Positions 692 to 60,590 are shown, numbered from the stretch's first letter. The stretch: 64,000 nucleotides of DNA from Dehalococcoidia bacterium (GCA_965116945.1 OZ220734.1:1906709-1970708), one strand, 5' to 3'. Notes: generated by a model from the letters alone, not told the origin. Made by a program: numbers and translations.

Positions 692-2866
<2,175 letters not shown>

Positions 2867-42419: not shown

Positions 42420-42510
42420 GTCACTCCAACTGGTAGAATTGCACTGCTTTGTTCGATTATTCACAGGTCTCATTCCTTTTGAGACGCAGTTGCAGTAAAA
42501 GGCCCAAGTA

Positions 42511-43188: not shown

Positions 43189-43248
43189 CTCCGCCTTGTG
43201 ATTAAGACTCGTGGTTGGGGGTTCGCGTAGGGCAATTGATACCCACCC

Positions 43249-44097: not shown

Positions 44098-45338
44098 GTC
44101 GCAGCTTCCTCCAGCCACTTCTTCACCAGGTTGGCCTCCTCCTCCCTGGACCCGACTACACCGTCGAGTCGGGCTTTGAGCAACCGATCCAGATTTTCCC
44201 CCACCCTTGGCCCCCGCGGCACTCCGATGGAAATCAGGTCCTTGCCACTGAGGTCGGGCCGGACACCCGACAGCCCATTGAGATAGTCGGACACCCGACT
44301 TCTCACAATCCCGCGTTGTGCAGCTACTCCAAAGGCCTGAATTGACAGCCTGCCGCACCCTTTGAAGTAACCGTAAACTTCGCTAGGCCTGAGTCTCGGC
44401 TCTGCTAACTCCGTCTCCCTGTCTCTCAGGTCAAGCATACCAAGGACAGTCTGAATCCAGTCTTTTGGGAAGCGGAAACGTTTCAGGAAGCTATGGGCTC
44501 TCTGTTTTTCTGTGGCATGAAGCAGCAGGGATAGGTAGATCGTGGAATCGACGTTCTCCAAGTCTCGGCGGGCGGATGCGAAGAGTGTGGACAACCCATC
44601 CCCGAGTCTTAGCTCCGGCTCTATAACGTCGACTACGCCTAATGCCACCGCCCGACCGAACTGAAGCTCAGGCTCGCGCTCCAGGAGAAAGAGTTCAATC
44701 TCCCGTCGCAAACGGTCTACCCCGACGGCAGGCAAGAGGTGGAGGTCACGGGCAATGAGTTCGAGTGTCTCCGGCTCAATTTCAAATCCCAGCCTCTGCT
44801 CGTATCGTATGGCCCGCATTATTCGCGTTGGGTCGTCTACGAAACTTCCCTCGTGCAAAACCCTGATCAACCCGTTACTCAGGTCCTCCCGACCCCCGAA
44901 TTGGTCCAACAAGCTGCCAGCGTTGGGAGGGCTTAGCGGAATAGCCATAGCGTTGACAGTGAAATCTCTCCGTTTCAGGTCTTCCTCTATTGGTCCAGGT
45001 CGGACGTCGGGCAGTACGCCTGGCCGTGAGTAGTCCTCTGCTCGGGAGGTGGCCAAATCGACGGCTAAGTCGTCGTGGCGGTACGTTGCGGTCCCGAACC
45101 TTGGATGCACAACTGCTTCCCCGCCCTGGTCAACCGCCAAAGCTCTGACAAGTTCCAGCGCATCACCCTCGACCACCAGGTCAAAGTCAGCCCCGCCCTT
45201 ATCCAGCAGCAGGTCTCTGACTCTGCCGCCAACAAGAAATAGGGGAGTCCGTCGTGCCTCGGCCAGCTCCCCCAGCCGACGCACCAATGCCCAGAGTCTC
45301 GGGCTGGTCTGCTCTTCTAATATCTTCAGGTAGTCCAT
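44094..45338 (-). CDS. cca: CCA-adding tRNA nucleotidyltransferase
   Basis: LFLVGGRVRDLLLDKGGADFDLVVEGD PolyA_pol head domain. Confidence 0.85.
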   Translation of the reverse strand: MDYLKILEEQTSPRLWALVRRLGELAEARRTPLFLVGGRVRDLLLDKGGADFDLVVEGDALELVRALAVDQGGEAVVHPRFGTATYRHDDLAVDLATSRAEDYSRPGVLPDVRPGPIEEDLKRRDFTVNAMAIPLSPPNAGSLLDQFGGREDLSNGLIRVLHEGSFVDDPTRIMRAIRYEQRLGFEIEPETLELIARDLHLLPAVGVDRLRREIELFLLEREPELQFGRAVALGVVDVIEPELRLGDGLSTLFASARRDLENVDSTIYLSLLLHATEKQRAHSFLKRFRFPKDWIQTVLGMLDLRDRETELAEPRLRPSEVYGYFKGCGRLSIQAFGVAAQRGIVRSRVSDYLNGLSGVRPDLSGKDLISIGVPRGPRVGENLDRLLKARLDGVVGSREEEANLVKKWLEEAAT

Positions 45339-45409
45339 TGGGTGCTCTTTATTATAGGGTGGGCCGGGTGTTAGAATTGACCCAGTTTGAAATTGAAAGG
45401 CGGGGCGAT

Positions 45410-46030
45410 ATGAGTGACAAGATTAACCTGACGGTTTTCTACGACTACCTTTGACCCTACGTACGGGTTGCAGCAGTTTGGCTGCGAGACGTAAAGGAAG
45501 CCTACGGAGACGACCTCGATATCACTTGGAAGAACTTCCCACTGGAGCAGGTGAACTCCAAGGAAGGCCCCGACTGGAAGCTCTGGGAACAGGGTGAGTC
45601 CTTTCCTAGCCGCGGGCTCCTGGCCCTCAGGGCCGGAGAAGCCGCCAAAAAGCAGGGCCCCGAGAAGTTTCAGGAATTCCATGTTGCCCTCCTCAACGCC
45701 CGTCACATGCAGCGCAAGGCCATCGACAAGCTGGAGATTCTGACTGAGGTGGCCAGGGAGTCCGGACTGGATGTCGACAGGTTCCTCGAAGACATAAACG
45801 ACCCCGAAGCCCTGAAGACCATAGCCGCCGACTATGAAGAGGCCACCTCCAAGTATGGCGTTTTCGGAGTGCCGACTATGTTCACGGAGTCAGGGGCGTC
45901 GGCCTTCGTCAAGATGATGCCTCCCCCCGAGGCGGACAAGGCTAGGGGCATTTTCGAAAACGTCCTGGGGCTGGTTGACGGAGCGCCCAACCTTCAGGAG
46001 ATCAAGCGTCCCACTCCTCCCGAGGAATAG
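45410..46030 (+). CDS. DsbA-like thioredoxin-fold protein with in-frame UGA at the CxxC position (putative selenoprotein)
   Basis: ATG at 45410 after GAAAGG. MSDKINLTVFYDYL-TGA(45452..45454)-PYVRVAAVWL continues in frame into track ORF 45551..46030. The UGA aligns with the first Cys of the DsbA/FrnE motif (FYDYL-U-PYV against WSDVV-C-PWC); the second Cys is Val here. Confidence 0.6.
45459..45492 (+). other. SECIS-like stem-loop immediately downstream of the DsbA-like UGA
   Basis: ACGT-acggg-TTGCAGC-AGTTTG-GCTGCGA-g-ACGT. The upper-stem sequence GGTTGCAG starts 12 nt after the UGA, the same position and sequence as the E. coli fdhF SECIS (GGUUGCAGG). The apical loop is AGUUUG. Confidence 0.55.
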
Positions 46031-46049
46031 GTAGGCTCTCCTTTCCACA

Positions 46050-46748
46050 ATGCCATTTGATATAGATTGTGAGCGCCTTATCGGCGTGAATTTCACCGAT
46101 AAGGCGCTCTTAACCCAGTCCATTACCCACACTTCCTATTCCCACGAACACCCTGAGGAATCCACGGATTCTTACGAGAGGCTGGAGTTCTTGGGTGATG
46201 CGGTTCTTGGCTTGGTTATTGCAGAAGATGTGTATGGCCATGCCGACCAGCTTAGTGCCGGAGAGATGACTACCCTTCGGGCGCAGCTAGTGTCTACCAA
46301 CTCCCTTGCTCAAGCTGCCCTGAACATGGGATTGGACAACTTTCTGCGGCTGGGTAGGGGAGAGGAGATGTCGGGGGGCAGGGCCAAGCCTAGAAACTTG
46401 GCCGGTTGCCTTGAAGCGGTGATTGGCGCTATTTGGCTGGACGCCGGGATGGAAGCCGCCCGAAATTTCATCGTGACCTCCCTCAAATCCGCTTTGGGAG
46501 AAGTCAACAAGCCTCTGGATGACTCAGACTACAAGTCCCGGCTCCAGGAGCTGACCCAGGCGACGCTTCAATCCCAACCGAGATATGAAACGGTTGAACA
46601 GATATCAAATACGGCTACCCCATTTTTCGCCTCCAAGGTCATAGTCGCGGGAAAGGCACTAGGTCACGGTACAGGGTCTTCCAAGAAAGAGGCCCAACGG
46701 GAGGCTGCCCGCAACGCCCTGGAGAAATTCTCCAAGACCCAATCCTGA
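46050..46748 (+). CDS. rnc: ribonuclease III
   Basis: ERLEFLGDAVLGL signature and a C-terminal dsRBD. Confidence 0.9.
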   Translation: MPFDIDCERLIGVNFTDKALLTQSITHTSYSHEHPEESTDSYERLEFLGDAVLGLVIAEDVYGHADQLSAGEMTTLRAQLVSTNSLAQAALNMGLDNFLRLGRGEEMSGGRAKPRNLAGCLEAVIGAIWLDAGMEAARNFIVTSLKSALGEVNKPLDDSDYKSRLQELTQATLQSQPRYETVEQISNTATPFFASKVIVAGKALGHGTGSSKKEAQREAARNALEKFSKTQS

Positions 46749-46755
46749 ACCGTGT

Positions 46756-47397
46756 TTACCAGGCGGTCTCTTCCGTCCTGATCGTCGCCTCCATCAGCCT
46801 GGCGACGGCCTGCTCGTTATCCCCTGCTCGGGCTCTTAGTTCGTTCAAGGCCCTTTGCCGTAGGTGTGCTGGCCTGTTCTGCCCCATCTTCCACTTACCC
46901 TCCACCCGAGCGATCTTGATCCTGAAAGCAGTCACGCCCCGAATCATTTTCCTGTTATAGGAATTTGTGAAATCTGTTGTCCACGGTTGGGACTCGAAGG
47001 ACTCATAGTAGTCCACTATCCGGTTGACTATATCCACCGTTTCCGTCTTGTCGCGTACGACTTCGAATGTGCCGTAGGCGTGAACGACGGCGTAGTTCCA
47101 GGTGGGCACCACGTCTTCCTCCTGGTACCACGTGGGCGACACGTAGGCGTGTGGCCCGTGGAAGACAATCAGCACTTCATGTCCGTCGGCGTGCTTCCAC
47201 TGGTCGTTGGCTTTCGCCATGTGCCCGATAATCGAATCCTGTCCTCCATCGTCTTCCTCCAGCACGAAAGGTAGATGCGTGGCCGTAGGCCCGGGTCCCT
47301 GGTGAGAGAACAGGATGCCGAATCCGTTATCCCGGATGAAATCGTATATACGCTTTTTGTCATTTACGGCGTACAGATCGGGCACATACATACTCAA
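46756..47397 (-). CDS. paiB: FMN-binding negative transcriptional regulator PaiB family
   Basis: MSMYVPDLYAVNDKKRIYDFIRDNGFGILFS... split-barrel FMN-binding fold. Confidence 0.75.
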   Translation of the reverse strand: MSMYVPDLYAVNDKKRIYDFIRDNGFGILFSHQGPGPTATHLPFVLEEDDGGQDSIIGHMAKANDQWKHADGHEVLIVFHGPHAYVSPTWYQEEDVVPTWNYAVVHAYGTFEVVRDKTETVDIVNRIVDYYESFESQPWTTDFTNSYNRKMIRGVTAFRIKIARVEGKWKMGQNRPAHLRQRALNELRARAGDNEQAVARLMEATIRTEETAW

Positions 47398-47418
47398 TTT
47401 CCCCCTGTGGAGAGGATC

Positions 47419-48543
47419 CTAGGTCCGGGCCCCGGCGCCCGGTGAGAAGCGTGCTATCCCAGCCAGTACTTCCGAGGCATGACTCACCAGGTCTTCAACA
47501 ATCCTGCCCGCCGGCCTCCGCTCCGCAATCAACCCCCCAACCTGTCCCCCAGAATTCAGCTCCAACTCTTCCAAATGCCCTTCGGAAACCCCGGCCTCCA
47601 TATCCTCAATCAGCATTCCTTGTAAGGGCATAGGCAGTGCCTCCAGACCCGACTCTGCCCACTCCTTCACCAGGGTGTTGTTGAAATAGCGGGCAGTCTT
47701 GCCAGAGCTAAGGCGGCTGATAACCCAGTCCTCGGACCTGCCATCCGCTATGCGGCGCTTGTGAATGTCGGGGACGGCGGCCTCATCAGAGCAAAGGAAC
47801 AATGTGCCGCACCAGACCCCCTGCGCCCCGAGTGACAGCGCTGCCGCTACCCCCCTCCCATCCCCGATTCCCCCTGCAGCGACCACGGGAATAGGGGATA
47901 TGGCATCGACCACCTGCGGCACCAACACCATCGTGGCGATTCGGCCTGTATGGCCTCCGGCCTCGTTGCCCTGTGCTACAACCACGTCGACACCCGCTTC
48001 AACATGCCGGCGCGCATGTCTCGGACTGCCCGCCATTCCTATGACCTTTATGCCGAGCCTGTGAGCGTCTTCGGTCATCCACCCTGGAGGCCCCAGCGCC
48101 GACACGAATACGGGAACCTCCTCTTCCAGTATTACTTCCACCTGGCGCCTGATGAAGGCTGGGTTGTATGCGAAGGACTTGCCAGCCTGGGCCTCGGGGA
48201 TTGAGTGTCGCTGGATGGCTCCCTTGACCCACGCCACATGCTCCGGGTAGTCCACCGGGAGACTGGCTTTTACCTCGGTACGGTTGTCGTCAACGTCTGC
48301 CATTGTCACGGGCAACTGCAGGTCCACGCCGAATGGATTGTTTGTGTTGTCTCGTATCCAGCGGATCTTCTCCCGGATGTCCTCGGGCTCCCACCCCGAA
48401 GCCCCAAGCACACCCAGCCCTCCAGCGTTCGATACTGCCGCGGCCAACTCCGGTGATCCACCGGGCACCATGCCTGCCTGGAGTATGGGGTACTTGATGC
48501 CCAGCAGGTCACATAAGGGAGTCCGGAGTGTATTGTCGGACAT
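47419..48543 (-). CDS. nitronate monooxygenase / NMO-family FMN oxidoreductase
   Basis: MSDNTLRTPLCDLLGIKYPILQAGM...GGIGDGRGVAAALSLGAQGVWCGT. The start is set at ATG 48543, preceded by GAGGAGAAC; the track ORF has a 50-aa spurious extension. Confidence 0.8.
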   Translation of the reverse strand: MSDNTLRTPLCDLLGIKYPILQAGMVPGGSPELAAAVSNAGGLGVLGASGWEPEDIREKIRWIRDNTNNPFGVDLQLPVTMADVDDNRTEVKASLPVDYPEHVAWVKGAIQRHSIPEAQAGKSFAYNPAFIRRQVEVILEEEVPVFVSALGPPGWMTEDAHRLGIKVIGMAGSPRHARRHVEAGVDVVVAQGNEAGGHTGRIATMVLVPQVVDAISPIPVVAAGGIGDGRGVAAALSLGAQGVWCGTLFLCSDEAAVPDIHKRRIADGRSEDWVISRLSSGKTARYFNNTLVKEWAESGLEALPMPLQGMLIEDMEAGVSEGHLEELELNSGGQVGGLIAERRPAGRIVEDLVSHASEVLAGIARFSPGAGART

Positions 48544-48707
48544 AATGTTCTCCTCAGGAGAAAGGTTGAAACTGAGAAAAGGATATGAACGTGGCAATGG
48601 GGTGTCAATGCGGAAGCGTGGCGAGGCGTGTTCGGTTAGGTACTGTTTGCAAGCGATATAATTGACCTTGAATTTGACCCATAGCGACACCAAATAAGGA
48701 CGCGGCT

Positions 48708-49643
48708 ATGCCCTTTCTACGGCTCAGAAGACGGAAGGAAAAGACTGAGGAGAGCCTCCAGCGCACCAAGCGAGGCTTTTTTCGGCGAATAGTCGGTGTA
48801 TTCAGTTCTACGAAGATCGACGAAGAGTTCTGGGAGACCCTTGAAGAATCAATGATAGCCGCGGATGTCGGGGTCCAGACTTCTACCCGACTCTCCGAAT
48901 CTCTTAGAGAACGAGTCAAGAGAGACCGTATCTCCAATCCCGAAGAAATCCGTGCTGCCCTCCGCGAGGAAATTGCCGCCATCCTGTCCAGGGCTACCGG
49001 TAATGGAGAGTTTCTGTCGTCGGTGAATGGTGGCCCGGGCATCGTTCTGGTGGTGGGGGTGAACGGCGGGGGAAAGACCACATCTATAGGTAAGCTGGCC
49101 CAGGCCTACACCGCCGAGGGGCAGAGCGTCGTTCTTGCTGCGGCTGACACATTCCGGGCCGCAGCTATCGAGCAGCTGGAGGTGTGGGGGCAGAGGACGG
49201 GGGCCCAGGTCATTTCCCATCAGCAGGGCTCTGATCCTGGAGCCGTGACCTTTGATGCCTTGAGCAGCGCCCGAAACAGGAAGGCCGACCTGGTAATAGT
49301 CGACACCGCAGGACGGCTGCACACGAAGTTCAACCTGATGCAGGAGCTTCAGAAGATCAAGAGAGTGGTGAGCCGCTTCGATCCCTCTGCTCCCCACGAG
49401 GTGATTCTGGTGCTAGATGCGGTAACGGGCCAGAACGCTGTTATCCAGGCCAAACAGTTCATAGAATCAGCTGGGGTCACCGGGATTTTTCTTGCCAAGC
49501 TGGACGGCTCGGCCAAGGGGGGTGTCGTCCTCAGCATTTGCGATGAGCTGGGTATACCCATCAGGTTCATTGGTACTGGCGAAGGCCCCGACGACATAGC
49601 CCCCTTCGATGCCGAGGAGTTCGCCGCAGCACTTCTGGATTGA
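48708..49643 (+). CDS. ftsY: signal recognition particle receptor FtsY
   Basis: [23 protein letters not shown]-GTPase NG domain. Confidence 0.9.
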
Positions 49644-49682: not shown

Positions 49683-52145
49683 ATGCGTCCGCCACAGGCG
49701 GGCGCATCGGCTTATTGGGTATTATGGGTCGACAATTATGAGCCCGGTCAGCCCGACATGATCGACTTCATTGCCTGGGCCCTCACCGTCGAGGCCCTGG
49801 GCCTCATCGCCCTGCCAATCACCTTTGTCCTTTTCTCCCGCCTCCCGTATGGCGGATACGCATTCGCGAAACCCCTGGGGATTCTTCTGTTCAGCTTCCT
49901 GGTCTGGGTAGTTGGGTTTACGGGTATCGTCCCGCTAAATCGTGTTTGGGTGTCGGTGCTGGCTGTCGTGCTGATGGCGGGATCCATGCTGGTAGTCAAG
50001 GACAGAATCCCCGAGTTCCTCGCATACCTGAGGTCCCGAAGGTGGACGATCGTCGCCGTGGACGTGGTGTTCGTGGGAGCCCTGGTCCTTTGGGCTGTCG
50101 TGCGGTCTCATAACCCTTCCATCAGCCACACCGAGCAGCCTATGGACTTTGCCCTGCTCAACTCGGTGGTCAGGGCGGAATCCATGCCCCCCCAGGACCC
50201 CTGGCTCAGCGGTCACTCGGTGAGCTACTACTACTTCGGATACGTGATGCACGGGGTCTTGGCCAAGGTATCGGGCGTGGACCCCGCGGTGGCTTACAAC
50301 CTCGCTATTGCCTTGGTATTTTCACTGTCCTTTACAGCTGCCTTCGGCCTTGCCTCAGAGATGGTTGCTATGCACCGCAATGGCAAACAGTCCGGGTACA
50401 CCGCACCCTTGGGGGTCGGGCTGCTTGCCGGTCTTTTGATGGTGTGGGTGGGCAACTTTCAGGGAGTGGCGGAATCGGCCCGGTCACTAGGGATAGGAGG
50501 AGATAGCGTATGGGGATGGGTCGGGGTGGAGGGAGCTACGAGCGTGCCGGAGACCTCGTCCCTGTTCCCCAACGACTTCTGGTGGTGGTGGCGCAGCACC
50601 CGCGTCATTGACGCCGCCGACTCCTTCCCGGCGATCACGGAATTTCCCAGCTTCAGCTTCATCCTCGGAGACCTGCACCCCCATGTCATGTCATTGCCCT
50701 TCGTCATCCTGGCCCTTGCGCTAGGGTTGACGGCCCTCGCGTCAGGGGAAATCTTCGGCGCCCGATGGGTCAAGAATAATAAGGTCGCCTTTGTTGTTAT
50801 TGCCATGGCGTTAGGGTCGCTGGGCTTCCTCAATAGCTGGGACCTGCCCCTTGGCTTGAGCCTGTTTCTCATAACAACATTCATTGCCAGCCGACGGTCA
50901 GCGCAAACTTGGGGTCGAGACCAGACTAGAGATTGGCTGATTTTCGCTGGAGCCGTAGCGTCAGCCTCTTTCGTTCTCTACCTGCCTTTCTACCTTGGCG
51001 ACAGACCTTCTCCCCTATTCCCGTGGGTCCTTCCCCTTCAAGATGTCCACACCCGCTACATCGACTATTTCCTGGTACTGGGGCTCTTCCTTCTGATCGT
51101 TGTCCCATTCATCCTGTCCCTGGCATTCCGCTACCGGCACTCAGGTAGTTCAAGCAGCAGGGAATGGCGATGGGGCGCCTTGACCCTGTTCGCACCTCTT
51201 GCAGTATGGGCCGGGATAGTTCTTCTGACGGGTCTTGTGCAGGGAGAGACGGTGGAGAGCCTTGCAGAGATTGGGTGGCGCCTCCTGTGGACGCTGCCTC
51301 TTCTGGTGTTGGTAGGGCTGGCTATCTGGACAGCGCTCAGGCTCGGTTTGAATGCTGCAAGTGAAGCGAGGGCGCCGGCTATCTTTGCAGCAGTACTGGT
51401 GTTTGCAGGATTATTCGTCACCCTTGGCCCGGAACTCTTCCGCATTGTCGACGTTTTCGGTAACAGGATGAATACGGTCTTTAAGTTGTACTACCAGGCC
51501 TGGATTTTGCTGGCGGTGGCATCCGCCTTCGCGCTCTATTACCTTTTCGTCAGCTGGAACAAGTCCAGTCCCCTGGCCCGGGCCGCGGGCGCATCGGCCA
51601 CAGGGCTGGTAGCATTGCTGATAGTGGCTTCTTCCATGTACTCCTTCGGTGCCATAGATGACAAGGCCGACTCCTTTGCCGGATCGCCTACCCTGAACGG
51701 TTTGGCCTTTCTCGGCTCTTCCGACTCTCCGGAACATCGGGCCTTGGAGTTCATTGCCAACGATTCGGACTCTGACTCAGTCGTGGTTGAAGCAGTTGCG
51801 GTTGATGACAGGGGCATACCGGGAGGCGACTACCGACTAGAATATGCCCGAGTGTCGGGACGCACCGGTGTGCCCACTGTTCTCGGGTGGGCGGGACACG
51901 AGGAGCAATGGCGCGGCAATCGTGTTGGGTTTCGGGAGAGAGCCGACGACGTGAAGACCATCTACACCGATCCCAACCCTATAATTGTCCGGGACCTGCT
52001 GGAAAAATACGGAATCGACTATGTCTACGTCGGAAGCCTGGAGAGAGACTTGTACGAGGTGCCCCCTACGGCAACCTTCGACATATTCATGGATCGAGCA
52101 TTCGTGTCGGGTGACATAGTCATCTACAAGGTGAGGCAGAATTGA
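49683..52145 (+). CDS. YYY-domain polytopic membrane protein (TIGR03662 Chloroflexi/archaeal family)
   Basis: 820 aa and highly hydrophobic, with the GHSVSYYYFGYVMHG motif. The alternative start MIDFIAW is at 49758. Confidence 0.7.
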   Translation: MRPPQAGASAYWVLWVDNYEPGQPDMIDFIAWALTVEALGLIALPITFVLFSRLPYGGYAFAKPLGILLFSFLVWVVGFTGIVPLNRVWVSVLAVVLMAGSMLVVKDRIPEFLAYLRSRRWTIVAVDVVFVGALVLWAVVRSHNPSISHTEQPMDFALLNSVVRAESMPPQDPWLSGHSVSYYYFGYVMHGVLAKVSGVDPAVAYNLAIALVFSLSFTAAFGLASEMVAMHRNGKQSGYTAPLGVGLLAGLLMVWVGNFQGVAESARSLGIGGDSVWGWVGVEGATSVPETSSLFPNDFWWWWRSTRVIDAADSFPAITEFPSFSFILGDLHPHVMSLPFVILALALGLTALASGEIFGARWVKNNKVAFVVIAMALGSLGFLNSWDLPLGLSLFLITTFIASRRSAQTWGRDQTRDWLIFAGAVASASFVLYLPFYLGDRPSPLFPWVLPLQDVHTRYIDYFLVLGLFLLIVVPFILSLAFRYRHSGSSSSREWRWGALTLFAPLAVWAGIVLLTGLVQGETVESLAEIGWRLLWTLPLLVLVGLAIWTALRLGLNAASEARAPAIFAAVLVFAGLFVTLGPELFRIVDVFGNRMNTVFKLYYQAWILLAVASAFALYYLFVSWNKSSPLARAAGASATGLVALLIVASSMYSFGAIDDKADSFAGSPTLNGLAFLGSSDSPEHRALEFIANDSDSDSVVVEAVAVDDRGIPGGDYRLEYARVSGRTGVPTVLGWAGHEEQWRGNRVGFRERADDVKTIYTDPNPIIVRDLLEKYGIDYVYVGSLERDLYEVPPTATFDIFMDRAFVSGDIVIYKVRQN

Positions 52146-54877
52146 CCGGCCCCGACCAAATGGACCCTACCCCGGCTCCCGGGTCTCCAGCCGCATTGTC
52201 GGCCCGGCTGAATGCCCGTCTACTTGGTTGGCTAGAGGGCGTCCCGGCTTGGGAAGTCTCGGTATACGTGGTTCTGGTAGCGTTGGCCGCGCTAACCCGG
52301 TTCTGGGACCTCGGGACCCGGGCAATGCACCATGATGAGAGCATTCACGCCTTCTTCGCCCTGGAATTCCTGGGAGCATACGAACATAACCCCCTGACCC
52401 ACGGTCCCTTCCAGTTCTTCGGCATCAACCTGTTTTTCAATATTTTCGGAGAAAGCGAGGTCACAGCCCGAGGCCTGGCCGCGGTGTCGGGGGTGCTTTT
52501 GGTCGGGCTCCCGTTCTTCCTGCGCAACTACCTCGGCCGCTGGACCTGCATGCTGGCAAGCCTGATGTTCCTCCTCTCTCCTACCATCCTCTACTTCACC
52601 CGCTTCGCCCGTAACGACGCATACATGGCCGTCTGGACCTTGCTGCTAATAGTGTTCATGTGGAAATTCTCGTCAGGTCGAAAGGCAAGATACCTGTACG
52701 CAGCCGCCGCTGTATTGAGTCTGGCTTTCGCCACAAAAGAGAACACCTTCATCCTGATGGTCATCCTGGCCGGCTTCTTCTTCCTGCTCTGGCTGAAGGG
52801 CATGGAAGACCCAACCGAACCCGACAAAGAGACTCCTCAAGAGGTCCTTAAATCGGGTGCCCCCCAAATGCTCCTTAAAACCATAGAGACCGTTAGAGCT
52901 GCCGCTGTCTGGCTGTGGCCACGCATCGCACCCTACCCCTTGGTCTTCACCCTGTTCCTGGCATGGATCGTTTCGGCTATCTTCTGGTCATTTGACATAT
53001 ATGACGTCTTCGGCAGGGTCAACCTCACCTTCAGCCTGGTCTCCTTGGGCATCGCCATAGGCCTTTACGTAGCATTGGTACCCTGGCTCGTAATACTGCG
53101 CAAGTCCCGACTCCATTCAAGATTGGAGTTCCGGGGAGTCGCCGACCGATTCCCCCTGATCGAACGCCTGCGCCGGACCCCCTGGCCCTTGCTTGTCTTA
53201 CTCCCAATGCCCCTGATGGGCGCCGCTCTGGGCGTTTTCCAGGAGCCCCTTGGCCTCACCCTTGCCAACCCCAATGCTTTCGGGGGTGGCGGTGAGCATC
53301 ACGTCGCCGGCATCCCCGATGGCGCCCCTGCGGGCAACATCAGCCTTGCCATGGCCCTTGGCATTACCGTTTACCTATTCGCCGCCAGCTTCTATATCGG
53401 CATCAAGTGGGACCGGAAGAAATTCCTGATAGCCGGCGCGATCTTCTGGTCGATATTTCTCGTCCTATTCACCACCTTCTTCACCAACACGGCACAAGGC
53501 TTGGGGAGCGGCCTGTGGCAGTCCCTCGGGTACTGGGTTGCTCAGCAGGAAGTCCGGCGCGGGGCTCAACCCTGGTACTACTACCTGGTTATGACCACGG
53601 TCTACGAATTCCTCGCCCTGGCCCTCGTCCTCGCTGGTGGAGTATGGCTCGCATTTAGGAATAGAACTTCTTGGAAGCCAAGCCTGCTGGTCTACCAGGG
53701 GTTCTTCTGGGCGATTGCCGCAGCTCTCGTACTGTATACCTACTGGATGCCCTCCGCCCCCGCCTCCCGACTCACCATTGGCACAATCCTGATTCTCGGG
53801 GCGGCCTTCGTTCTGTTCACCTACCAGTTTGCCTTCGACAAGTTTTTCCTGCGAAGCAGGCTACTGGTCGCCAACCTGGCAGTCCTCCTTCTTTTGGTTA
53901 TCAACTGGGAAGTCCCGAGAATTATCGAGGCCACGGGCGTGGGAACCGTCGCTAGCTTCGACTCGGCCCGGGAACCATTTAACGCCGTAGTCCTCTTCGC
54001 TACCCTCTTGATCATCACTTACAAGTCCCTCACACGGGAGAACCGATTTGACGCATTCCTCGTCTTTTGGCTCGCGGCAACCCTCGTCCTCTATTCGTCC
54101 GCCGGCGAGAAGATGCCCTGGCTGATGGTCCACACTGCCCTCCCCATAATCCTGCTAGCGGCCAGGCTGGTGGGGAGAGCTATTGAAGGCGTTGACTGGA
54201 AGGCCCCCCTCAATCTCCGTTGGGCCGCGGCGTTGATTGGGGTACTGGCCTTGTCCCTTGTCGGCTTCCATTCGACGCGTGTGGCGGTGGATGCCGCCTA
54301 TGGTCTCGGACGGCCCGGGACAGGGGATTACCCCATCGAAATGCTGGTTTATACCCAGACCACACCCGACATCACCCGAACAATGGCCAGCATCGAAGAA
54401 CGGGCCAGTGAGACCGGCCAGGGATTCGAACTGCCCATTATCATCGACAGAACCAGCGGCTTCGGTTATCCGTGGCGCTGGTACCTGCGAGATTATACGA
54501 ATGTGCATTGGCCCTGCTACGACTCCGAGACCTCTGATGCAACGTGCTCGGCACTAAATGAGCCTCCTGGAGCCGAAGTAATTGTCATGCACTACAGGAA
54601 CGAAATCGCCGCCACCGAATATCTCTCCGAATTTGACGAGGGAGAGCGGATAGGACACAGGGCGTGGTTCCCTGAATTCGCCACGTACAAGAGCGGGTCC
54701 AATCCCTTGCCCTTGGGCACATTCGTTAGCGCACTGGGTGACGGGGGATCATGGCGTCAGTGGTGGGACTACTTCGTCGATCGGGAACTTGCGGAAGGCA
54801 AACAGGTCGGCTCTGAGGATGCGATTGTGTTCTTCCGCCTCGGCCCCGAGCCTTTTGTAGAGGATGAGGAGCAATAG
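52142..54877 (+). CDS. TIGR03663-family membrane protein (GT39/ArnT/PMT-like glycosyltransferase fold)
   Basis: RFWDLGTRAMHHDESIHAFF N-terminal motif; 911 aa polytopic; the start overlaps the upstream stop. Confidence 0.7.
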   Translation: MTGPDQMDPTPAPGSPAALSARLNARLLGWLEGVPAWEVSVYVVLVALAALTRFWDLGTRAMHHDESIHAFFALEFLGAYEHNPLTHGPFQFFGINLFFNIFGESEVTARGLAAVSGVLLVGLPFFLRNYLGRWTCMLASLMFLLSPTILYFTRFARNDAYMAVWTLLLIVFMWKFSSGRKARYLYAAAAVLSLAFATKENTFILMVILAGFFFLLWLKGMEDPTEPDKETPQEVLKSGAPQMLLKTIETVRAAAVWLWPRIAPYPLVFTLFLAWIVSAIFWSFDIYDVFGRVNLTFSLVSLGIAIGLYVALVPWLVILRKSRLHSRLEFRGVADRFPLIERLRRTPWPLLVLLPMPLMGAALGVFQEPLGLTLANPNAFGGGGEHHVAGIPDGAPAGNISLAMALGITVYLFAASFYIGIKWDRKKFLIAGAIFWSIFLVLFTTFFTNTAQGLGSGLWQSLGYWVAQQEVRRGAQPWYYYLVMTTVYEFLALALVLAGGVWLAFRNRTSWKPSLLVYQGFFWAIAAALVLYTYWMPSAPASRLTIGTILILGAAFVLFTYQFAFDKFFLRSRLLVANLAVLLLLVINWEVPRIIEATGVGTVASFDSAREPFNAVVLFATLLIITYKSLTRENRFDAFLVFWLAATLVLYSSAGEKMPWLMVHTALPIILLAARLVGRAIEGVDWKAPLNLRWAAALIGVLALSLVGFHSTRVAVDAAYGLGRPGTGDYPIEMLVYTQTTPDITRTMASIEERASETGQGFELPIIIDRTSGFGYPWRWYLRDYTNVHWPCYDSETSDATCSALNEPPGAEVIVMHYRNEIAATEYLSEFDEGERIGHRAWFPEFATYKSGSNPLPLGTFVSALGDGGSWRQWWDYFVDRELAEGKQVGSEDAIVFFRLGPEPFVEDEEQ

Positions 54878-55009
54878 ACGTCCATTTGCCCCTCCGAGTC
54901 GGCCTTCCTATAATTGAATGACCATCAGTGAATACTGAAACCATACCGGCAGACCGCAAGCCTCGCCGACCCGTTATGAAACCACTTCCACTTCAAGGCA
55001 CGCCAGTCA

Positions 55010-56077
55010 TTGCTAAAATCTAAGAAGCTCTGGCTCGGCCTGGTCGTAAGCGCGCTTTTCCTTACCCTCTTCCTCTACCGTATCGACTATTCCGAAACCT
55101 GGGACGCGCTCCGCGGCGCCAATTACCTGTATGTCCTGCCGGCCATCGCCGTATACTTCGGGTCGCTCTGGTTCAGGACTATACGTTGGCAGTACCTGAT
55201 GAAGCACCTCACCGAGGTCTCGGTGGCCCGACTCTACCCCGTCACCATAGTGGGTTACATGGCCAACAATATCCTGCCCGTGCGCCTCGGGGAAATCGTC
55301 CGCTCCTACTATCTGTCCACCCGGGAGCGAATCAGCACGACATCGGCCCTTGGCACCGTGGGCGTAGACCGCGTCTTTGACGGTCTTACCCTGATTTTCT
55401 TCCTGCTCGTTATCTGGCCCTTCCTTCCCCTTGCAGACATTCTGAAGAACGATGCCGGCGATGTAATCTGGAGCAGGGTGGTGGGCAGCGCAGTCGTATT
55501 CGCGGTGTTCCTTGGTGGGATAGTTGTCTTCGTGGCCCTCGCCGTCAGGCCGGGCCTTACCTCCTTCACCGTAAGAACGCTGCTTATCTTCGTGCCGGGT
55601 CGATTCAGAGCACTAATCAAAGGACTGGCCGAGACCTTTATTGAGGGTCTCGGGTCTCTCGGCAGCGCCAGGAAACTCTTTGTCATTTTCATTCTCTCGC
55701 TGCCAATATGGATCATGGAGTGCCTGATGTACTACCTGATCACACTCTCCTTTGATCAGTTTGACGTTTCCTTTGCTCTGGCCATGGTTGTGACCGCTAC
55801 CTCCAATTTGGTCGGGGCACTACCCGCTGCGCCCGGAAACGTCGGAACATTCGAATGGGCCATCAAGATTACCCTGGTTGCCTTTGGCTTCAACCCCGAG
55901 ATCACAGTTGCCTACGCAGCGACCCTCCACGTGGTGCTGTGGTTGCCCGTCGTGGTGGCCGGAGTAATGTATCTTTGGCTCGAACACCGTTCCCTTATGG
56001 AGCTTGTTCGTGGGGGAACGCCAGCTGCGGCCGTGGCCGGAGGCAACATCTCCATGGAAGGAGAAAACAAGGATTGA
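55010..56077 (+). CDS. flippase-like domain protein (UPF0104 / LPG-synthase TM-region family)
   Basis: TTG start; LYRIDYSETWDALRGANYLYVLPAI...WFRTIRWQYLM is typical of TIGR00374. Confidence 0.7.
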   Translation: MLKSKKLWLGLVVSALFLTLFLYRIDYSETWDALRGANYLYVLPAIAVYFGSLWFRTIRWQYLMKHLTEVSVARLYPVTIVGYMANNILPVRLGEIVRSYYLSTRERISTTSALGTVGVDRVFDGLTLIFFLLVIWPFLPLADILKNDAGDVIWSRVVGSAVVFAVFLGGIVVFVALAVRPGLTSFTVRTLLIFVPGRFRALIKGLAETFIEGLGSLGSARKLFVIFILSLPIWIMECLMYYLITLSFDQFDVSFALAMVVTATSNLVGALPAAPGNVGTFEWAIKITLVAFGFNPEITVAYAATLHVVLWLPVVVAGVMYLWLEHRSLMELVRGGTPAAAVAGGNISMEGENKD

Positions 56078-57396
56078 AAATAGGAGTCATCGGTGCGGGA
56101 GCCGCGGGTTTGGCGGCAGCCTACGAGTTGCTAAAAAGAGGCCATAACGTCCATGTCTACGAGGCTGCCCCATTCGTCGGCGGCCAGGCCTCGACATTCG
56201 ACGTCGGGGGTGGAAGGCTGGAACGGGGCTACCACCACCTCTTCAAAAGCGACACCTACATGGTGGACCTCATCCACGAACTCGGCCTCGGCGACAAGCT
56301 GGCCTGGATTGAGTCCAAGGTCGGGTTCTACCACGATGGCACCATTTACAACTTCGTGACACCCTTCGACCTGCTCAAATTCAAACCTCTGAGCCTGATC
56401 AACCGCATTCGCCTGGGCCTCGTGACCCTCTACCTTCAGAAGACAGGAAACTGGAAGAAATTCGAGAACGTCACGGCAAGGGATTGGGTAATAAAGTGGG
56501 CCGGACGTCAGGCCTACGACGTGGTCTGGGGCCCACTCCTCAGGGGCAAGTTCGGGGCCAGCGCTGATGAAATTAGCATGGCCTGGCTCTGGGGCAAGAT
56601 CTACCTAAGGGTCGCCTCCCGAGACAAGAGCCTCCAGAAAGAACGGCTCGGCTATCCGATGGGCAGCTTTGGCGAGGTTTTCGAGGTTCTCACCGAGCGT
56701 ATTGAGCAGATGGGCGGAGAGGTCCACTTGTCCACCCCCGTGACCCGGGTCATTGTGGAGAATAATCGGGCCACGGGTCTGGAGATTAAGAGATCGAATG
56801 GAGAGGCAGCCACCGAGAACTTCGACCTGATAATATCGACAACGCCGTCCTACATCTTCCCCAGGCTCGTCCCCGAACTCCCCAACGACTACACCGAGAC
56901 CCTGACCAGAATCAAGTATCATGCCGCAATTCTGGTAGTCATGGTTCTGAAGAAGTCCCTGTCCCACATCTACTGGATGAACATTAGCGGATACAAGACC
57001 CCGTTCCTCGCCGTCATAGAGCACACCAACTTCATCGACAAGTCCCACTACGGCGGCAAACACCTCGTCTATCTCAGTAACTACCTTGGCAAGGAAAGCC
57101 CCATGTATTCGATGAGCCGGGAAGAGCTGATGGCCGAGTACCTGCCTCACCTAAAACGCCTCAACCCCGACTTCGAAGAGTCCTGGATTGAGGAGTATTA
57201 CTATCACAGGGAAGAGGCCGCACAGCCTATCGTAACCACCAACTATGGCGAGAAGATTCCCGCCCACCGAACCCCCATCGACAGGCTTTATCTCGCCAAT
57301 ACCACCCAGATCTACCCCGAAGACCGGGGCACCAACTACTCCATCCGCCTCGGCCAACGGATCGCAAAGCTGGTTTTGGAAGAAAACGCTGGCTAA
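56074..57396 (+). CDS. NAD(P)/FAD-dependent oxidoreductase (amine oxidase / phytoene desaturase-like)
   Basis: (M)KIGVIGAGAAGLAAAYELLKRGHNVHVYEAAPFVGGQAS dinucleotide-binding motif. The TTG start overlaps the previous stop (TTGA). Confidence 0.75.
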   Translation: MKIGVIGAGAAGLAAAYELLKRGHNVHVYEAAPFVGGQASTFDVGGGRLERGYHHLFKSDTYMVDLIHELGLGDKLAWIESKVGFYHDGTIYNFVTPFDLLKFKPLSLINRIRLGLVTLYLQKTGNWKKFENVTARDWVIKWAGRQAYDVVWGPLLRGKFGASADEISMAWLWGKIYLRVASRDKSLQKERLGYPMGSFGEVFEVLTERIEQMGGEVHLSTPVTRVIVENNRATGLEIKRSNGEAATENFDLIISTTPSYIFPRLVPELPNDYTETLTRIKYHAAILVVMVLKKSLSHIYWMNISGYKTPFLAVIEHTNFIDKSHYGGKHLVYLSNYLGKESPMYSMSREELMAEYLPHLKRLNPDFEESWIEEYYYHREEAAQPIVTTNYGEKIPAHRTPIDRLYLANTTQIYPEDRGTNYSIRLGQRIAKLVLEENAG

Positions 57397-57486
57397 GTGC
57401 AGCATCGAGGCTCAACACTACACCCGCCGGCGAAGCCCCATCCCCCCCGACCAGGAATCCCTGCCCATTTTTCCCGCTATTGAACT

Positions 57487-57533
57487 AGGGGTAGAGGTTA
57501 GCGCTTTTGCGCCAACCTCTACCCCTGTTTTTC
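57487..57533 (+). terminator. rho-independent terminator after the envelope-gene cluster
   Basis: AGGGGTAGAGGTTAGCGC-tttt-GCGCCAACCTCTACCCCT followed by GTTTTTCT. Confidence 0.7.
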
Positions 57534-57550
57534 TCCCCCCTCTCCCTCCA

Positions 57551-57803
57551 AAAGTGGGACATTTGCCCCTTGACACCACTAAAACACCCGTTCTATAATG
57601 CCCCCAGTCTAGACCTCACACCCACCCCAAGGAGGAACCCAAAAACCCAGGGAAGCCCCCGAGACCCCACCCGAGGACTCAACGCCCTAGCCCATCCCAA
57701 CGGCCCTCGCGCAGGCCTGCGGCACAAGCGAACGTCGCCATCTCCTCATCCCGCTGGGTCCCGTGTCCTTTCCCTGGTCGTCAGGCGATGGAAAGACGCC
57801 CTG
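57551..57803 (+). promoter_or_regulatory. consensus sigma70 promoter plus conserved ~250 nt leader module (copy C), reading toward the fds operon
   Basis: TTGACA 57570..57575, 18-nt spacer, TATAAT 57594..57599. The upstream AAAGTGGGACATTTGCCCC and the downstream ~200 nt are near-identical to the reverse complement of 3300..3594. Confidence 0.5.
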
Positions 57804-58381
57804 GATAGAGCCACAGCGGATCGGCCATCCCCCGCCGAGGCGGTAGTCTCGGAGGCTGGTTAGCAGCGAGCTTACGCTATATCAAGCAGGGGTGGCGGGC
57901 CGGCTACCCCCGACCGGGACTGGATCCCGGAGGTCGGCCCGCCGGCGAGCTTGCGCCATATATCAAGCAAGGGGTCGCTGGGCCGCCTTGACCCTCGGGG
58001 GGCCCACGTAACACATGATGTCTGAGGGGGCCACAGCCCGATCACTGGCCCCCGCCATGCCTGCGGGCATTCAGAAGTGGGGTCAAGGCCCGGTTGTCTG
58101 CCCGGACAACTGGAGCACACATCGAGCGCTAGGGCGCGGCCGGCTGCAATCCGCCCTCGTGGCGGACCTCCAAGGCCCCCTACAGCCGGAACACCGCATT
58201 AGAGTAGAGGCCAACGGCTCACCAGGCGTCTTCCATCGCCAACCCTAAACCCGACAGACAACCCGAAAACCCCAAACCCTACAACTGAATAAGAACCCGG
58301 AGTGTTAGGAACCCTCGCAAACCGCCATGCCCTCCTTGAACGCCTTCTGTGTGTAGGGCATAATAGTGCGCAAGTTCACAC

Positions 58382-58870
58382 TTGGAGCAAGCGCAACCCC
58401 CCATGACGGCAACGGCCTCTACGACAGATAGAGTCAACCAGGCCCTTAATCAACAGGTCAAAGACGAAGTTACCGTTCTCTCATCCCTGATTTACGTTCA
58501 GGAGGAGTTCGGGTTCTTGCCCCCCGAGTCCATCCCCCTGGTAGCGGACTTCACCGACGCCTCCATCAACGACGTGTTCGGCGTCGCGACCTTCTATACC
58601 CACTTCCGCTTCACCCCACCCGGGCCCCACACCGTAGAAGTCTGCTGGGGCCCGTCCTGTCACGTCCGCGGCGCCGCCGAGGTGATGTCGGCGGTAAAGG
58701 CCGAATTGGGCATGGAAGAAGAAGGCACTACGAAGGACGGTCAGGTTACCTGGAAGAGGTCGTCCTGTGCCGCTGCCTGTGCCCACGGGCCCGTGGCTAT
58801 GGTCGACGAGATGATCTACGGAGACCTCACCCCCGAGGCCGCAGTACAGCTCATTAAGGACGTCCGGTAA
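58382..58870 (+). CDS. fdsG: NuoE-like 2Fe-2S subunit (FdsG/HoxE-type)
   Basis: VCWGPSCHVRGAAEV...CAAACAHGPVAMVDE thioredoxin-like [2Fe-2S] ferredoxin. Confidence 0.8.
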   Translation: MEQAQPPMTATASTTDRVNQALNQQVKDEVTVLSSLIYVQEEFGFLPPESIPLVADFTDASINDVFGVATFYTHFRFTPPGPHTVEVCWGPSCHVRGAAEVMSAVKAELGMEEEGTTKDGQVTWKRSSCAAACAHGPVAMVDEMIYGDLTPEAAVQLIKDVR

Positions 58871-58885
58871 GGTCATTTACACACC

Positions 58886-60580
58886 ATGACGGAAGCCTAC
58901 AAGCAGCTCAGAGAACGCGCTGACGCCGGTTGGGAAGCTCTCAGCAACGGCTCCCCAGTCCGAATCATGGTCGGCGCCGCTACCTGCGGTCGGGCCGCGG
59001 GCGGCCTGCAAGTGATCCAGGCTTTTGAAAAGGCCATTGCTGCGAATGGCCTCGAGGCCCGTGTCCACCGCGTCGGCTGTATCGGCCTCTGCTACGCCGA
59101 GGTGTTGGTAGACATAATAGTCCCCGGCCAACCACGCATAACTTACGCAAACGTCACCCCGGTATTAGCGGAGACCCTCGTCAAGGACTACCTCGTCGGC
59201 GGAAACCCCAGGTCAGACCTGGCCATCGGCATCAGGGGCGAAGGTTCCCTGGACGGAGTCCCCGCCCTGTTTGACATCCCCGACCTGAAACCCCAGGTCC
59301 GCGTCGCCATGCGCAATTGCGGAACAATCGATCCCTCAGATATCGACCAGTATATCGCCAACGGCGGTTACTCCGGCCTCGACCGTTGCCTGTCCGACAT
59401 GAAGCCCCCAGAAGTCATTGAGGAGGTCCTCAAGTCGGGGCTTAGAGGGAGGGGCGGGGCCGCATTCCCAGCCGCGATGAAGTGGCGCTTCCTGGCCAGC
59501 GCCCCCGGCCCGACCAAGTACATCCTCTGCAACGCCGAGGAAGGCGACCCTGGCGCCTACAACGACAAGGGCCTGCTTGAAAGCGACCCCCACACCGTCC
59601 TGGAAGGCATGACCATCGCTGGGTATGCCACCGCCGCCAGCAAAGGCTATGTCTTCATTCGTTGCGTCCACCGAGACGTAATCCGAACTACCCATACCGC
59701 CATCGATCAGGCCTACAAAGAAGGCCTGCTTGGCAAGAACATCCTTGGCACTGACTTCAACTTCGACATCGCAGTTGCTCTCACCGGCGAGTCCTATGTA
59801 TCCGGTGAAGAGACAGCCTTAATGGAGGCAATCGAAGGCAAGCGTGCCATGCCTCGGTACAGGCCCCCCTTCCCCGCCCAGGTCGGGCTCTGGGGCAAGC
59901 CCAGCAACATCAACAACGTTAAGACCTACGCTTACGTGCCGGAGGTCCTCCGCCAGGGCGGCGATTGGTACGCGAGTATCGGGACGGAACGGAGCAAGGG
60001 TACTGCCATTGTGTGCCTGACAGGCAATGTGGCCCGACCCCAGATGGCCGAAGTGCCCTTCGGCCTGACCCTCCGACAGGTCATAGATGACGTCGCCGGG
60101 GGTGTGAGTCCGGGCAACGAGATTAAGCTCCTCCAGACCGGCGGGCCCCTGGGTGGGTTCCTCGGCCCCTCCGAGATCGATGTCACCCTGGACTTTGATG
60201 AGATGGCCGGCAGGGGCGCAATCCTCGGCTCCGGCGGAATTATCGTCGGCGACGAAAGTTCTTGCCCGGTAGAAATGGCGTCAATCCTCGCCGATTTCAA
60301 CAATGAAGAGTCCTGCGGCAAATGCTTCCCCTGCCGTCTCGGGACCAAGCACATCCTCGAAAAATTCGAGACCATGACCGAAGGCAAAGCGCAGGAGGGG
60401 GACGTAGACAAGATGCTCGCCATGGGCGACACCCTTCTCACCTCCCTCTGCGGCCACGGCCAGCTCTCTGTCAACCCGATCAAATCCGCCGTCAAGTATT
60501 TTGAAGACGAACTGAACGCTCATATCATCGACAAGGTGTGCCCCGCCGGGAGGTGCGCCGCCCTCGCCAAGCCGAACTAG
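58886..60580 (+). CDS. fdsB: NuoF-like NAD(H)-binding FMN/4Fe-4S subunit with N-terminal NuoE-like domain (FdsB-type)
   Basis: GRGGAAFPAAMKW FMN site and ESCGKCFPCRLGT 4Fe-4S motif; 564 aa. Confidence 0.85.
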   Translation: MTEAYKQLRERADAGWEALSNGSPVRIMVGAATCGRAAGGLQVIQAFEKAIAANGLEARVHRVGCIGLCYAEVLVDIIVPGQPRITYANVTPVLAETLVKDYLVGGNPRSDLAIGIRGEGSLDGVPALFDIPDLKPQVRVAMRNCGTIDPSDIDQYIANGGYSGLDRCLSDMKPPEVIEEVLKSGLRGRGGAAFPAAMKWRFLASAPGPTKYILCNAEEGDPGAYNDKGLLESDPHTVLEGMTIAGYATAASKGYVFIRCVHRDVIRTTHTAIDQAYKEGLLGKNILGTDFNFDIAVALTGESYVSGEETALMEAIEGKRAMPRYRPPFPAQVGLWGKPSNINNVKTYAYVPEVLRQGGDWYASIGTERSKGTAIVCLTGNVARPQMAEVPFGLTLRQVIDDVAGGVSPGNEIKLLQTGGPLGGFLGPSEIDVTLDFDEMAGRGAILGSGGIIVGDESSCPVEMASILADFNNEESCGKCFPCRLGTKHILEKFETMTEGKAQEGDVDKMLAMGDTLLTSLCGHGQLSVNPIKSAVKYFEDELNAHIIDKVCPAGRCAALAKPN

Positions 60581-60590
60581 AGGTACACAC

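Follow-up and report, generated by a model that had tools for sequence, protein, structure and literature searches.

What joint task, if any, is performed by four closely packed genes that encode two large membrane proteins, a flippase-like protein and a flavoprotein? The question is raised by positions 49,683 to 57,396 (+ strand) of a 64,000-nucleotide (nt) stretch of DNA from a Dehalococcoidia bacterium (GCA_965116945.1, OZ220734.1:1906709-1970708), which was analysed at its full length and is called the window here. The first gene, g1 (49683..52145, with an alternative start at 49758), encodes a DUF2298/Chlor_Arch_YYY protein of 820 or 795 amino acids (aa), polytopic in the membrane and with a C-terminal soluble domain; the second, g2 (52142..54877, TTG start, 911 aa), encodes an Agl23-family membrane protein of the PMT_2-type GT-C class; the third, g3 (55010..56077, TTG start, 355 aa), a stand-alone MprF-flippase-domain protein (UPF0104/LPG_synthase_TM); and the fourth, g4 (56074..57396, TTG start, 440 aa), an oxidoreductase of the NF005560/PRK07233 family that depends on flavin adenine dinucleotide (FAD). 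We propose, with a probability of roughly 55%, that this region encodes an envelope glycosylation module which works at the outer face of the cytoplasmic membrane with sugars carried on polyprenyl monophosphate. The direct results bearing on this proposal are the four family memberships, the GT-C fold of g1, the conservation of gene order and the pairing of g4-family genes with flippase genes across phyla. All four families had been catalogued before and the logic of such a system is familiar; what is new is the assignment of a GT-C fold to DUF2298, the counted recurrence of the four-gene order in Chloroflexota and the flavoprotein-flippase pairing across phyla.

In the proposed mechanism, a cytoplasmic GT2-type synthase encoded outside the window would load a sugar onto polyprenyl phosphate. 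To judge from its gene context, g4 may then modify the lipid-linked intermediate at the inner face, either by oxidising the sugar, as DprE1 does in the first half of an epimerisation, or by changing the isoprenoid carrier. Homology with the flippase domain of MprF suggests that g3 would carry the loaded lipid across the membrane, and the GT-C enzymes g2 and g1 would finally transfer the sugar to an extracytoplasmic protein or glycan, as their fold, topology and invariant acidic residues suggest. An initial annotation of this DNA, made from its sequence, had put forward a membrane machine that glycosylates and flips a lipid-linked substrate. Read as a machine that flips a lipid-linked sugar and uses it, this is the best-supported view, drawing on the fold of g1, the Asp-Glu pair of g2, the repeated finding of the same gene order and the GT-C, GT2 and DedA genes inserted in related loci.

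Families and folds of the three membrane proteins

Family membership was called from hidden Markov model scores read against the curated cut-offs of NCBIfam/TIGRFAM and Pfam, and the four family calls of the initial annotation proved correct, each protein scoring above its curated cut-off. The g1 protein reached 533.4 bits with TIGR03662 (cut-off 300.25; model positions 2-727 of 727) and 361 bits with PF10060, the DUF2298 family (cut-off 27.8). Structures of g1 (from 23 homologues) and of g4 were modelled with AlphaFold2 and compared with the PDB using Foldseek. The g1 model (predicted local distance difference test, pLDDT, 83; predicted template modelling score, pTM, 0.89) gave eleven best matches that were all GT-C proteins, with E-values from 1.5e-7 to 2e-3 and a probability of 1.00; these included the C-mannosyltransferase DPY19 (1.5e-7), archaeal AglB (4e-6), AftA (5e-4) and PglB (1e-3), and the C-terminal domain of g1 resembled the C-terminal globular domain of an AglB paralogue. 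Because the global template modelling scores (TM-scores) are low, at 0.28-0.52 with AftA reaching up to 0.52, the assignment denotes a fold class and not close kinship. Among the three proteins with which the initial annotation had proposed to compare the fold, AglB and PglB are in the group of best matches and ArnT ranks lower, as does Pmt4. On the basis of this model, g1 is a predicted GT-C-fold glycosyltransferase. At the level of sequence profiles, a search of PDB sequences with the g1 profile found no GT-C match and no meaningful relatives, and a profile-profile comparison (hhalign) of the YYY and Agl23-like families returned a probability of 2.7%, at which homology is not detectable.

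Residues that are invariant in the 23 sequences are E126, D130, D147, Y158-Y159-F160-G161, E295, D305, H307 and H309 (numbering of the 795-aa form). The first two lie in an invariant TEQPMDF loop directly after a helix at residues 95-117, and the loop before this helix, KDRIPEFLAYLRSRRW, is strongly positive, with five Arg/Lys residues. Because a positive loop stays inside under the positive-inside rule, the acidic loop should face outside, and E126 and D130 should, judged from this rule alone, be extracytoplasmic, where the catalytic residues of GT-C enzymes lie. The motifs that the initial annotation had quoted, SYYYFGY in g1 and RFWDLG...HHDESIHAFF in g2, are both present in the translations. 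Its statement that the YYY motif is restricted to Chloroflexi and Archaea did not hold, as a DUF2298 protein of Pseudobutyrivibrio (Bacillota) carries NYYYMG; its gene belongs to a polysaccharide locus that also encodes GT2 enzymes, a member of the O-antigen-ligase family and a sugar aminotransferase.

The g2 protein scored 251.4 bits with TIGR03663 (cut-off 126.25) in three matched stretches, the best of which covers residues 42-248; NCBI now names this family 'flippase activity-associated protein Agl23'. N-terminal matches at residues 87-218 gave 49 bits with PMT_2 and 38 bits with PMT, and at E <= 0.001 no other Pfam family was found in g2, nor was the MIR or PMT_4TMC module of true protein O-mannosyltransferases. 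Single-sequence and profile searches of PDB chains returned no meaningful relatives of g2, and tblastn against plasmid records returned no match. In 58 homologues from related loci, and also in a set of 15, D65 and E66 (HHDES, just after the first membrane helix) are invariant; R53, H87, R110 and the E656...W660 stretch of the C-terminal GEKMPW motif are likewise invariant in the 58. We take D65-E66 to occupy the position of the catalytic Asp-Glu in PMT-type GT-C enzymes, and since the pair is kept at this position, g2 has the appearance of an active transferase, regardless of any additional lipid flipping of the Agl23 kind.

For Agl23 of Haloarcula hispanica, PMC11182771 describes a putative hexose-phosphate-dolichol flippase that is tied to the use of dolichyl-phosphate-hexose and rescues a yeast rft1 deletion, and whose purified form flips the lipid-linked oligosaccharide Man5GlcNAc2-PP-lipid in liposomes. 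With these genetic and in vitro flippase data, the remark in the initial annotation that the system has no experimentally defined function is outdated for TIGR03663; a literature search under the names DUF2298, TIGR03662, TIGR03663 and PRK07233 found no functional study in the library searched. The Agl22/Agl23 dolichyl-phosphate-hexose system of H. hispanica (Lu et al. 2020, cited in PMC11182771) shares its NCBIfam family with g2, a likeness by family model and not by direct alignment; the family is tied to the handling and flipping of hexose linked to lipid phosphate in surface glycosylation. It differs in that g2 is bacterial, has 911 aa against the 435 positions of the TIGR03663 model, and is coupled to genes for DUF2298, UPF0104 and flavoprotein, and no Agl22-like synthase was found nearby. 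If our proposal is true, DUF2298 would gain a function and the archaeal Agl23 system a bacterial counterpart.

The Foldseek matches of g1 to AglB, to PglB and to the AglB C-terminal globular domain, together with the in vitro translocation of Man5GlcNAc2-PP-lipid by Agl23 in the work just cited, speak for an oligosaccharyltransferase system, in which g1 would act like AglB or PglB on a preassembled lipid-linked oligosaccharide, passing it to proteins, and g2 would be the flippase. This is in our judgement quite improbable. The g1 protein has no WWD or WxDYG pattern (its tryptophan run, WWWWRSTR, stands at another position), and for want of a WWDYG-type motif it was not classed among the oligosaccharyltransferases; DPY19 and AftA, both users of monosaccharide donors, match it equally well or better; and g2 keeps a catalytic-type Asp-Glu that a pure flippase would not need. 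Moreover, the annotated genes at 40259-48693 and 58382-63290, and four at 692-6804, are housekeeping or redox genes, and tblastn searches of the window (E <= 0.01; three GT2 queries and one UbiA query, plus GtrA, DedA and an epimerase of the short-chain dehydrogenase/reductase (SDR) class) found no match to any of these, phosphoglycosyl-transferase and Wzx not having been searched for directly.

The g3 protein scored 112 bits with TIGR00374 (cut-off 43.2) and 177 bits with PF03706 (LPG_synthase_TM; cut-off 33.4) over profile positions 2-302 of 302, so that it has, at full length, the Pfam/TIGRFAM domain of the MprF flippase domain and of the flippase candidates GpgF and HexF. Unlike these, whose substrates are phospholipids or glycolipids, g3 has no GT4 or deacetylase partner, and its 355 aa hold the membrane domain only, the fused aminoacyl-phosphatidylglycerol synthase domain of MprF not being found. 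A search of plasmid records with g3 gave only two weak matches, in Bacteroidota. In Archaea, UPF0104 proteins encoded beside PMT/STT3-like enzymes have been predicted to be glycosylation flippases (PMC5898192). The archaeal neighbourhood of UPF0104 (arCOG00899), PMT/STT3-like (arCOG00563) and AglD-like GT2 genes described by Makarova et al. 2015 (PMC5898192), itself a prediction for surface glycosylation, has the same UPF0104-GT-C adjacency as the region studied here, whereas our module is bacterial, adds DUF2298 and PRK07233 and lacks a GT2 gene.

Order of the four genes in Chloroflexota

Chloroflexota are abundant and mostly uncultured, their cell envelopes are poorly understood, and the module is widespread among them: a pattern scan with one genome per species gave at least 592 confirmed DUF2298 loci. 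The best 80 of these were examined, all from Chloroflexota and mostly from Dehalococcoidia, with labels that include Anaerolineae, Chloroflexia and Thermoflexus, and the YYYxG motif was present on the + strand in 76 of the 80. Gene order was counted by tblastn with the window proteins in the 63 loci that have at least 8 kb of sequence 3' of g1, Thermoflexus and Chloroflexia being among the loci scored. The results showed that a g2 homologue lies 3' of g1 in 54 of the 63 loci (at a distance of no more than 600 nt in 44), that g3 is present 3' of g1 in 39, and that g2, g3 and g4 are all present and in order in 35; g2 is found with neither g3 nor g4 within 10 kb in 15 loci, and none of the three in nine. 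In the loci that keep the four-gene order, g1 is 34-68% identical to the window protein and the genes further downstream vary. Contexts seeded from g4 homologues had the full order in three of four cases, the fourth (L091) holding g3-g4 without g1-g2. All four genes are present in Thermoflexus hugenholtzii, of which strain JAD2 is cultured and could serve as a model (L006).

In the window, the module is two translationally coupled gene pairs, g1-g2 and g3-g4. The TGA stop of g1 (52143-52145) overlaps the TTG start of g2 (52142-52144) within TTGACC, giving a 4-nt TTGA overlap, and a Shine-Dalgarno-like site, GGTGAGG, lies 5 nt 5' of that TTG; the TGA stop of g3 (56075-56077) overlaps the TTG start of g4 (56074-56076) in the same 4-nt TTGA manner, and the overlap is preceded by GGAAGGAG, a Shine-Dalgarno-like purine run. 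At the g3/g4 junction elsewhere, 0-18 nt lie between the aligned segments in 7 of 37 loci. The overlapping stop and start codons of the initial annotation were thus recovered for g1/g2 and for g3/g4 but not for g2/g3, which are separated by a spacer of 132 nt (54878..55009, + strand). A sigma-70-like site within this spacer, TTGCCC-17-TATAAT at 54886-54914, agrees with 10 of 12 consensus positions and is, as a consensus match only, a possible internal promoter for g3-g4; shuffled sequence yields such sites at least as often. A linked four-gene neighbourhood, as the initial annotation had it, recurs in 35 of 63 Chloroflexota loci, but each pair also occurs alone, and a description as two pairs, frequently but not invariably linked, suits the four genes better.

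Further support for a common pathway comes from the genes that interrupt the order in other loci. Additional PMT_2 GT-C genes lie between g1 and g2 in two loci (L067, L022), and in L022 a 1208-aa PMT_2-PA14-NHL fusion (17324-20950) directly follows the Agl23-like gene; its PA14 and NHL-repeat beta-propeller domains could bind a carbohydrate acceptor. The module of L048 includes a DedA/VTT gene whose product is most like the undecaprenyl-phosphate transporter UptA, and small GT2 genes inside the modules of L004 and L005 are nearest to AglJ, PpgS and dolichyl-phosphate hexose transferases, all with scores below cut-off. These insertions, PMT_2, PMT_2-PA14-NHL, DedA/UptA-like and GT2, all belong to polyprenyl-phosphate-linked glycosylation.

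Several findings weigh against a single glycosylation module and favour instead two unrelated units standing side by side on a conserved backbone, a GT-C pair g1-g2 and a membrane-lipid pair g3-g4, where the flavoprotein would modify a lipid or glycolipid of the membrane for the UPF0104 protein to flip, with no substrate common to the two pairs. The 15 loci with g1-g2 but without g3-g4 and the reverse case of L091 are of this kind, as is the 132-nt gap with its promoter-like site that divides g1-g2 from g3-g4 in the window. In another locus (L049) a DDE_3 transposase gene (16011-16895) lies between the Agl23-like and the flippase-like gene, the pairs being about 2.5 kb apart. In 53 of 73 loci the next gene upstream of DUF2298, encoded on the same strand, is ftsY, itself preceded by rnc, and SRP54 domains were found in the genes equivalent to ftsY of three g4-seeded loci. 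The ftsY gene probably belongs to the context and not to the working parts of the module. Both rnc and ftsY are housekeeping genes and equally syntenic, so part of the synteny may be inherited chromosomal backbone, and gene order alone is weakened as a functional argument. UPF0104 proteins, moreover, accompany glycolipid synthesis in gpgSDF and hexSDF, and the flippase candidates of these characterised operons act on glycolipids such as GlcN-PG and not on polyprenyl carriers (PMC12713373). Two other points count against our proposal, namely that the one archaeal YYY locus seen, on a Halarchaeum plasmid, has no Agl23 neighbour, and that the 64-kb window lacks the tblastn matches to GT2, UbiA, GtrA, DedA and SDR epimerase as given above. 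Two separate units are nevertheless in our view a somewhat unlikely explanation, since the order is kept in 35 of 63 loci at 34-68% g1 identity while the downstream genes vary, since other loci carry GT2, DedA and additional GT-C genes between the two pairs, and since the g4 family adjoins GtrA in polyprenyl-phosphate-sugar clusters of other phyla, as described below.

Other features of the related loci were recorded. In three loci labelled Anaerolineae or Chloroflexi, open reading frames (ORFs) of about 1500-1625 aa with similarity to DUF2298 (L059 1564-6057, L080 2854-7545, L056 3388-8265) lie 1.7-3.9 kb upstream of a normal-length copy on the same strand, with other ORFs between; they are reminiscent of the class with 'two copies of the domain' in the description of TIGR03662. 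Two Dehalococcoidia loci have a gene for a membrane fatty-acid desaturase after g4 (L094 11506-12639, L012 18400-19596), and a trehalose-6-phosphate synthase gene lies slightly further downstream in L094 and L095.

The flavoprotein and its partners in other phyla

The g4 protein scored 526 bits with NF005560/PRK07233 (cut-off 252) over residues 1-438, and stayed below the cut-offs of the CrtI family (46 vs 238), PDS (48 vs 569), HpnE (108 vs 283) and protoporphyrinogen oxidase (PPO; 72 vs 98). Its AlphaFold2 model (pLDDT 83) matched PPO (TM-score 0.74), phytoene desaturase (TM-score 0.76), amine oxidases and the Methanosarcina oxidoreductase 3ka7; because PPO, phytoene desaturase and amine oxidases match about equally, the fold class is given here and no substrate. 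It is the most conserved gene product of the module, with 61-65% identity in the Chloroflexota clusters from about rank 12 on, versus 36-40% for g1.

The initial annotation had offered, as an alternative to glycosylation, that the module modifies a lipid or carotenoid. In the form of carotenoid or hopanoid tailoring, g4 would be a CrtI/HpnE-type desaturase and the membrane proteins would glycosylate or export the pigment; it draws what plausibility it has from a weak likeness of g4 to HpnE (108 bits) and, in the N-terminal FAD motif, to CrtI and PDS, and from the phytoene desaturase structure among the best fold matches. We consider it very improbable, given the wide distance of g4 from the HpnE, CrtI and PDS cut-offs, the lack of carotenoid or squalene genes among the annotated neighbours of the module, both in the window and in those related loci that were examined, and the location of homologues outside Chloroflexota in polyprenyl-phosphate-sugar clusters and not in carotenoid clusters. 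A carotenoid/hopanoid or PPO identity of g4 itself was rejected in view of its scores below the family cut-offs and of its gene context.

The best 120 matches of the g1 and of the g4 searches came from Chloroflexota only, and distant relatives were reached through tblastn against plasmids and a mixed profile. Full-length g4 homologues with 31-38% identity were found in this way in Burkholderia, a Rhodobacteraceae strain, Agrobacterium, Rhizobium and Embleya; four of them were scored with NF005560, giving 503-548 bits for the proteobacterial proteins (Burkholderia, Rhodobacteraceae, Agrobacterium) and 460 bits for that of Embleya (Actinomycetota). A GtrA-family gene lies directly 3' of the g4-family gene in all eight proteobacterial loci examined. 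In seven of the eight, genes for an epimerase-family SDR and a HAD-UbiA protein similar to decaprenyl-phosphate phosphoribosyltransferase precede the g4-family gene, and six also hold a DprE1-like FAD_binding_4 protein (319 bits for that of the Burkholderia locus, the one scored) and a DprE2-like short-chain dehydrogenase, so that most of these clusters are decaprenyl-phospho-arabinose-like. One proteobacterial locus (L090 5544-11293) has HAD-UbiA, epimerase SDR, PRK07233 flavoprotein and GtrA together with a 523-aa protein that matched no Pfam family, without DprE1/DprE2, and another (L093 8001-10328) has only flavoprotein, GtrA and a 217-aa protein; these minimal clusters may be the best place to find the role of the flavoprotein. 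The g4-like gene of Embleya has a DegT aminotransferase gene before it and shares an overlap with a GT2 gene of the PgfS/ArnC-like kind. What recurs, then, is a PRK07233 flavoprotein with a candidate flippase for lipid-linked sugars, GtrA in Proteobacteria and UPF0104 in Chloroflexota.

Taken jointly, these results leave room for a broader and distinctly more tentative reading, which we would not expect to hold but think worth stating: PRK07233-type flavoproteins would be an unrecognised cross-phylum component of polyprenyl-phosphate-sugar pathways, working together with a flippase, and DUF2298 would be a new GT-C family. The synthase genes of the clusters that share this one family suggest that different sugars are probably handled, so the flavoprotein might act on the shared isoprenoid-phosphate carrier, for instance converting it by saturation into a bacterial dolichol-like lipid, a target also suggested by the kinship of g4 with isoprenoid-chain enzymes. 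A CrtI-like polyprenol reductase was looked for in the literature, with no relevant result. Alternatively, PRK07233 proteins could be a second class of lipid-linked-sugar oxidase with a fold unrelated to DprE1, and sugar oxidation is suggested for g4 because an epimerase-type SDR adjoins it in Proteobacteria, by analogy with DprE1/DprE2. If the glycosylation model is true, a large flavoprotein family in the arabinose-type lipid-sugar clusters of Burkholderia, Cupriavidus and rhizobia would have a testable role, and these hosts of g4-family genes are genetically tractable.

Two further known systems come close to the glycosylation module proposed here. The three-component GtrA/GtrB/Gtr* and pentofuranose systems (PMC11127046), to whose type our best-supported model belongs, likewise combine a polyprenyl-phosphate donor, a small flippase and an outer-face GT-C enzyme, to which the flippase candidate g3, the GT-C proteins g1 and g2 and the small GT2 of L004 and L005 would correspond; our module differs in having UPF0104 in place of GtrA, two GT-C families, an extra flavoprotein and an unlinked synthase. 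The mycobacterial decaprenyl-phospho-arabinose cluster (GtrA-like Rv3789, DprE1, DprE2, AftA/Emb) also combines a flippase-like gene, an FAD oxidoreductase and GT-C enzymes, and the likeness extends to the resemblance of the g1 model to AftA and to the proteobacterial g4 homologues within DprE1/DprE2/UbiA/GtrA clusters. In contrast to DprE1, which has the vanillyl-alcohol-oxidase fold, g4 has a PPO/PDS/amine-oxidase fold, and neither an SDR partner nor UbiA was found in the window.

Gene boundaries and surroundings of the module

All four + strand genes of the initial annotation correspond to ORFs at the coordinates given above, and two of the start codons called for closer inspection. The mechanical ORF of g4 opens at ATG 55855; because the family match over the full length and the Rossmann motif (GxGxxG) begin at TTG 56074, that codon is taken as the true start of the 440-aa protein. 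For g1, the 820-aa form that the initial annotation had adopted is backed by relatives 74-77% identical, which keep the 25 extra N-terminal residues of the ATG 49683 form, but an identical database protein and all more distant homologues start at Met26 (ATG 49758; 795 aa), and the g1 start is ambiguous between the two on this comparison of sequences.

The module is closed by an intrinsic terminator at 57487..57533 (+), and the initial annotation was right to call it strong. Its hairpin has arms at 57487-57504 and 57509-57526, which form 17 base pairs in an 18-position stem with one internal mismatch and a 4-nt loop, and is followed by the T-run GTTTTTCT; the folding energy is -35.7 kcal/mol (z = -8.4), and none of 200 shuffles folded equally well.

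At the other end, ftsY (48708..49643, +), the gene for the signal recognition particle (SRP) receptor, ends 39 or 114 nt before g1, depending on the g1 start. Prediction gave no terminator-like site in the interval between ftsY and g1 in the window, and the SRP receptor gene is perhaps co-transcribed with the large membrane proteins of the module. Genes flanking the module are housekeeping or unrelated: ksgA-like, ispE-like, PHP protein, OGG, CCA-adding enzyme, RNase III, FMN-binding, nitronate-monooxygenase-like and ftsY genes upstream, and genes for NuoE-like and NuoF-like proteins and a formate-dehydrogenase-like subunit downstream.

A gene-free, C-rich stretch of 985 nt (57397-58381) follows g4 and has an inverted copy at 2959-3599 that is about 80% identical in three blocks. 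The common 5' part of this repeat, of about 300 nt, starts at a sigma-70-like promoter, which at 57570-57599 is a perfect TTGACA-18-TATAAT. One copy lies about 780 nt upstream of the nuoE/nuoF/fdhA-like operon, and about 790 nt downstream of the other stands a gene for a katG-like catalase-peroxidase (2812..692, minus strand). In the spacer downstream of g4 no Rfam family was found, and in the closest relative (L001) the interval from g4 to the NuoF-like gene, of about 545 nt, is too short for the element, which may be a shared promoter with a long leader, or a small RNA. The window also holds one tRNA gene (27475-27547, minus strand) and a bacterial large SRP RNA at 38590-38856 (+) that scored 186 bits and is some 10 kb upstream of ftsY.

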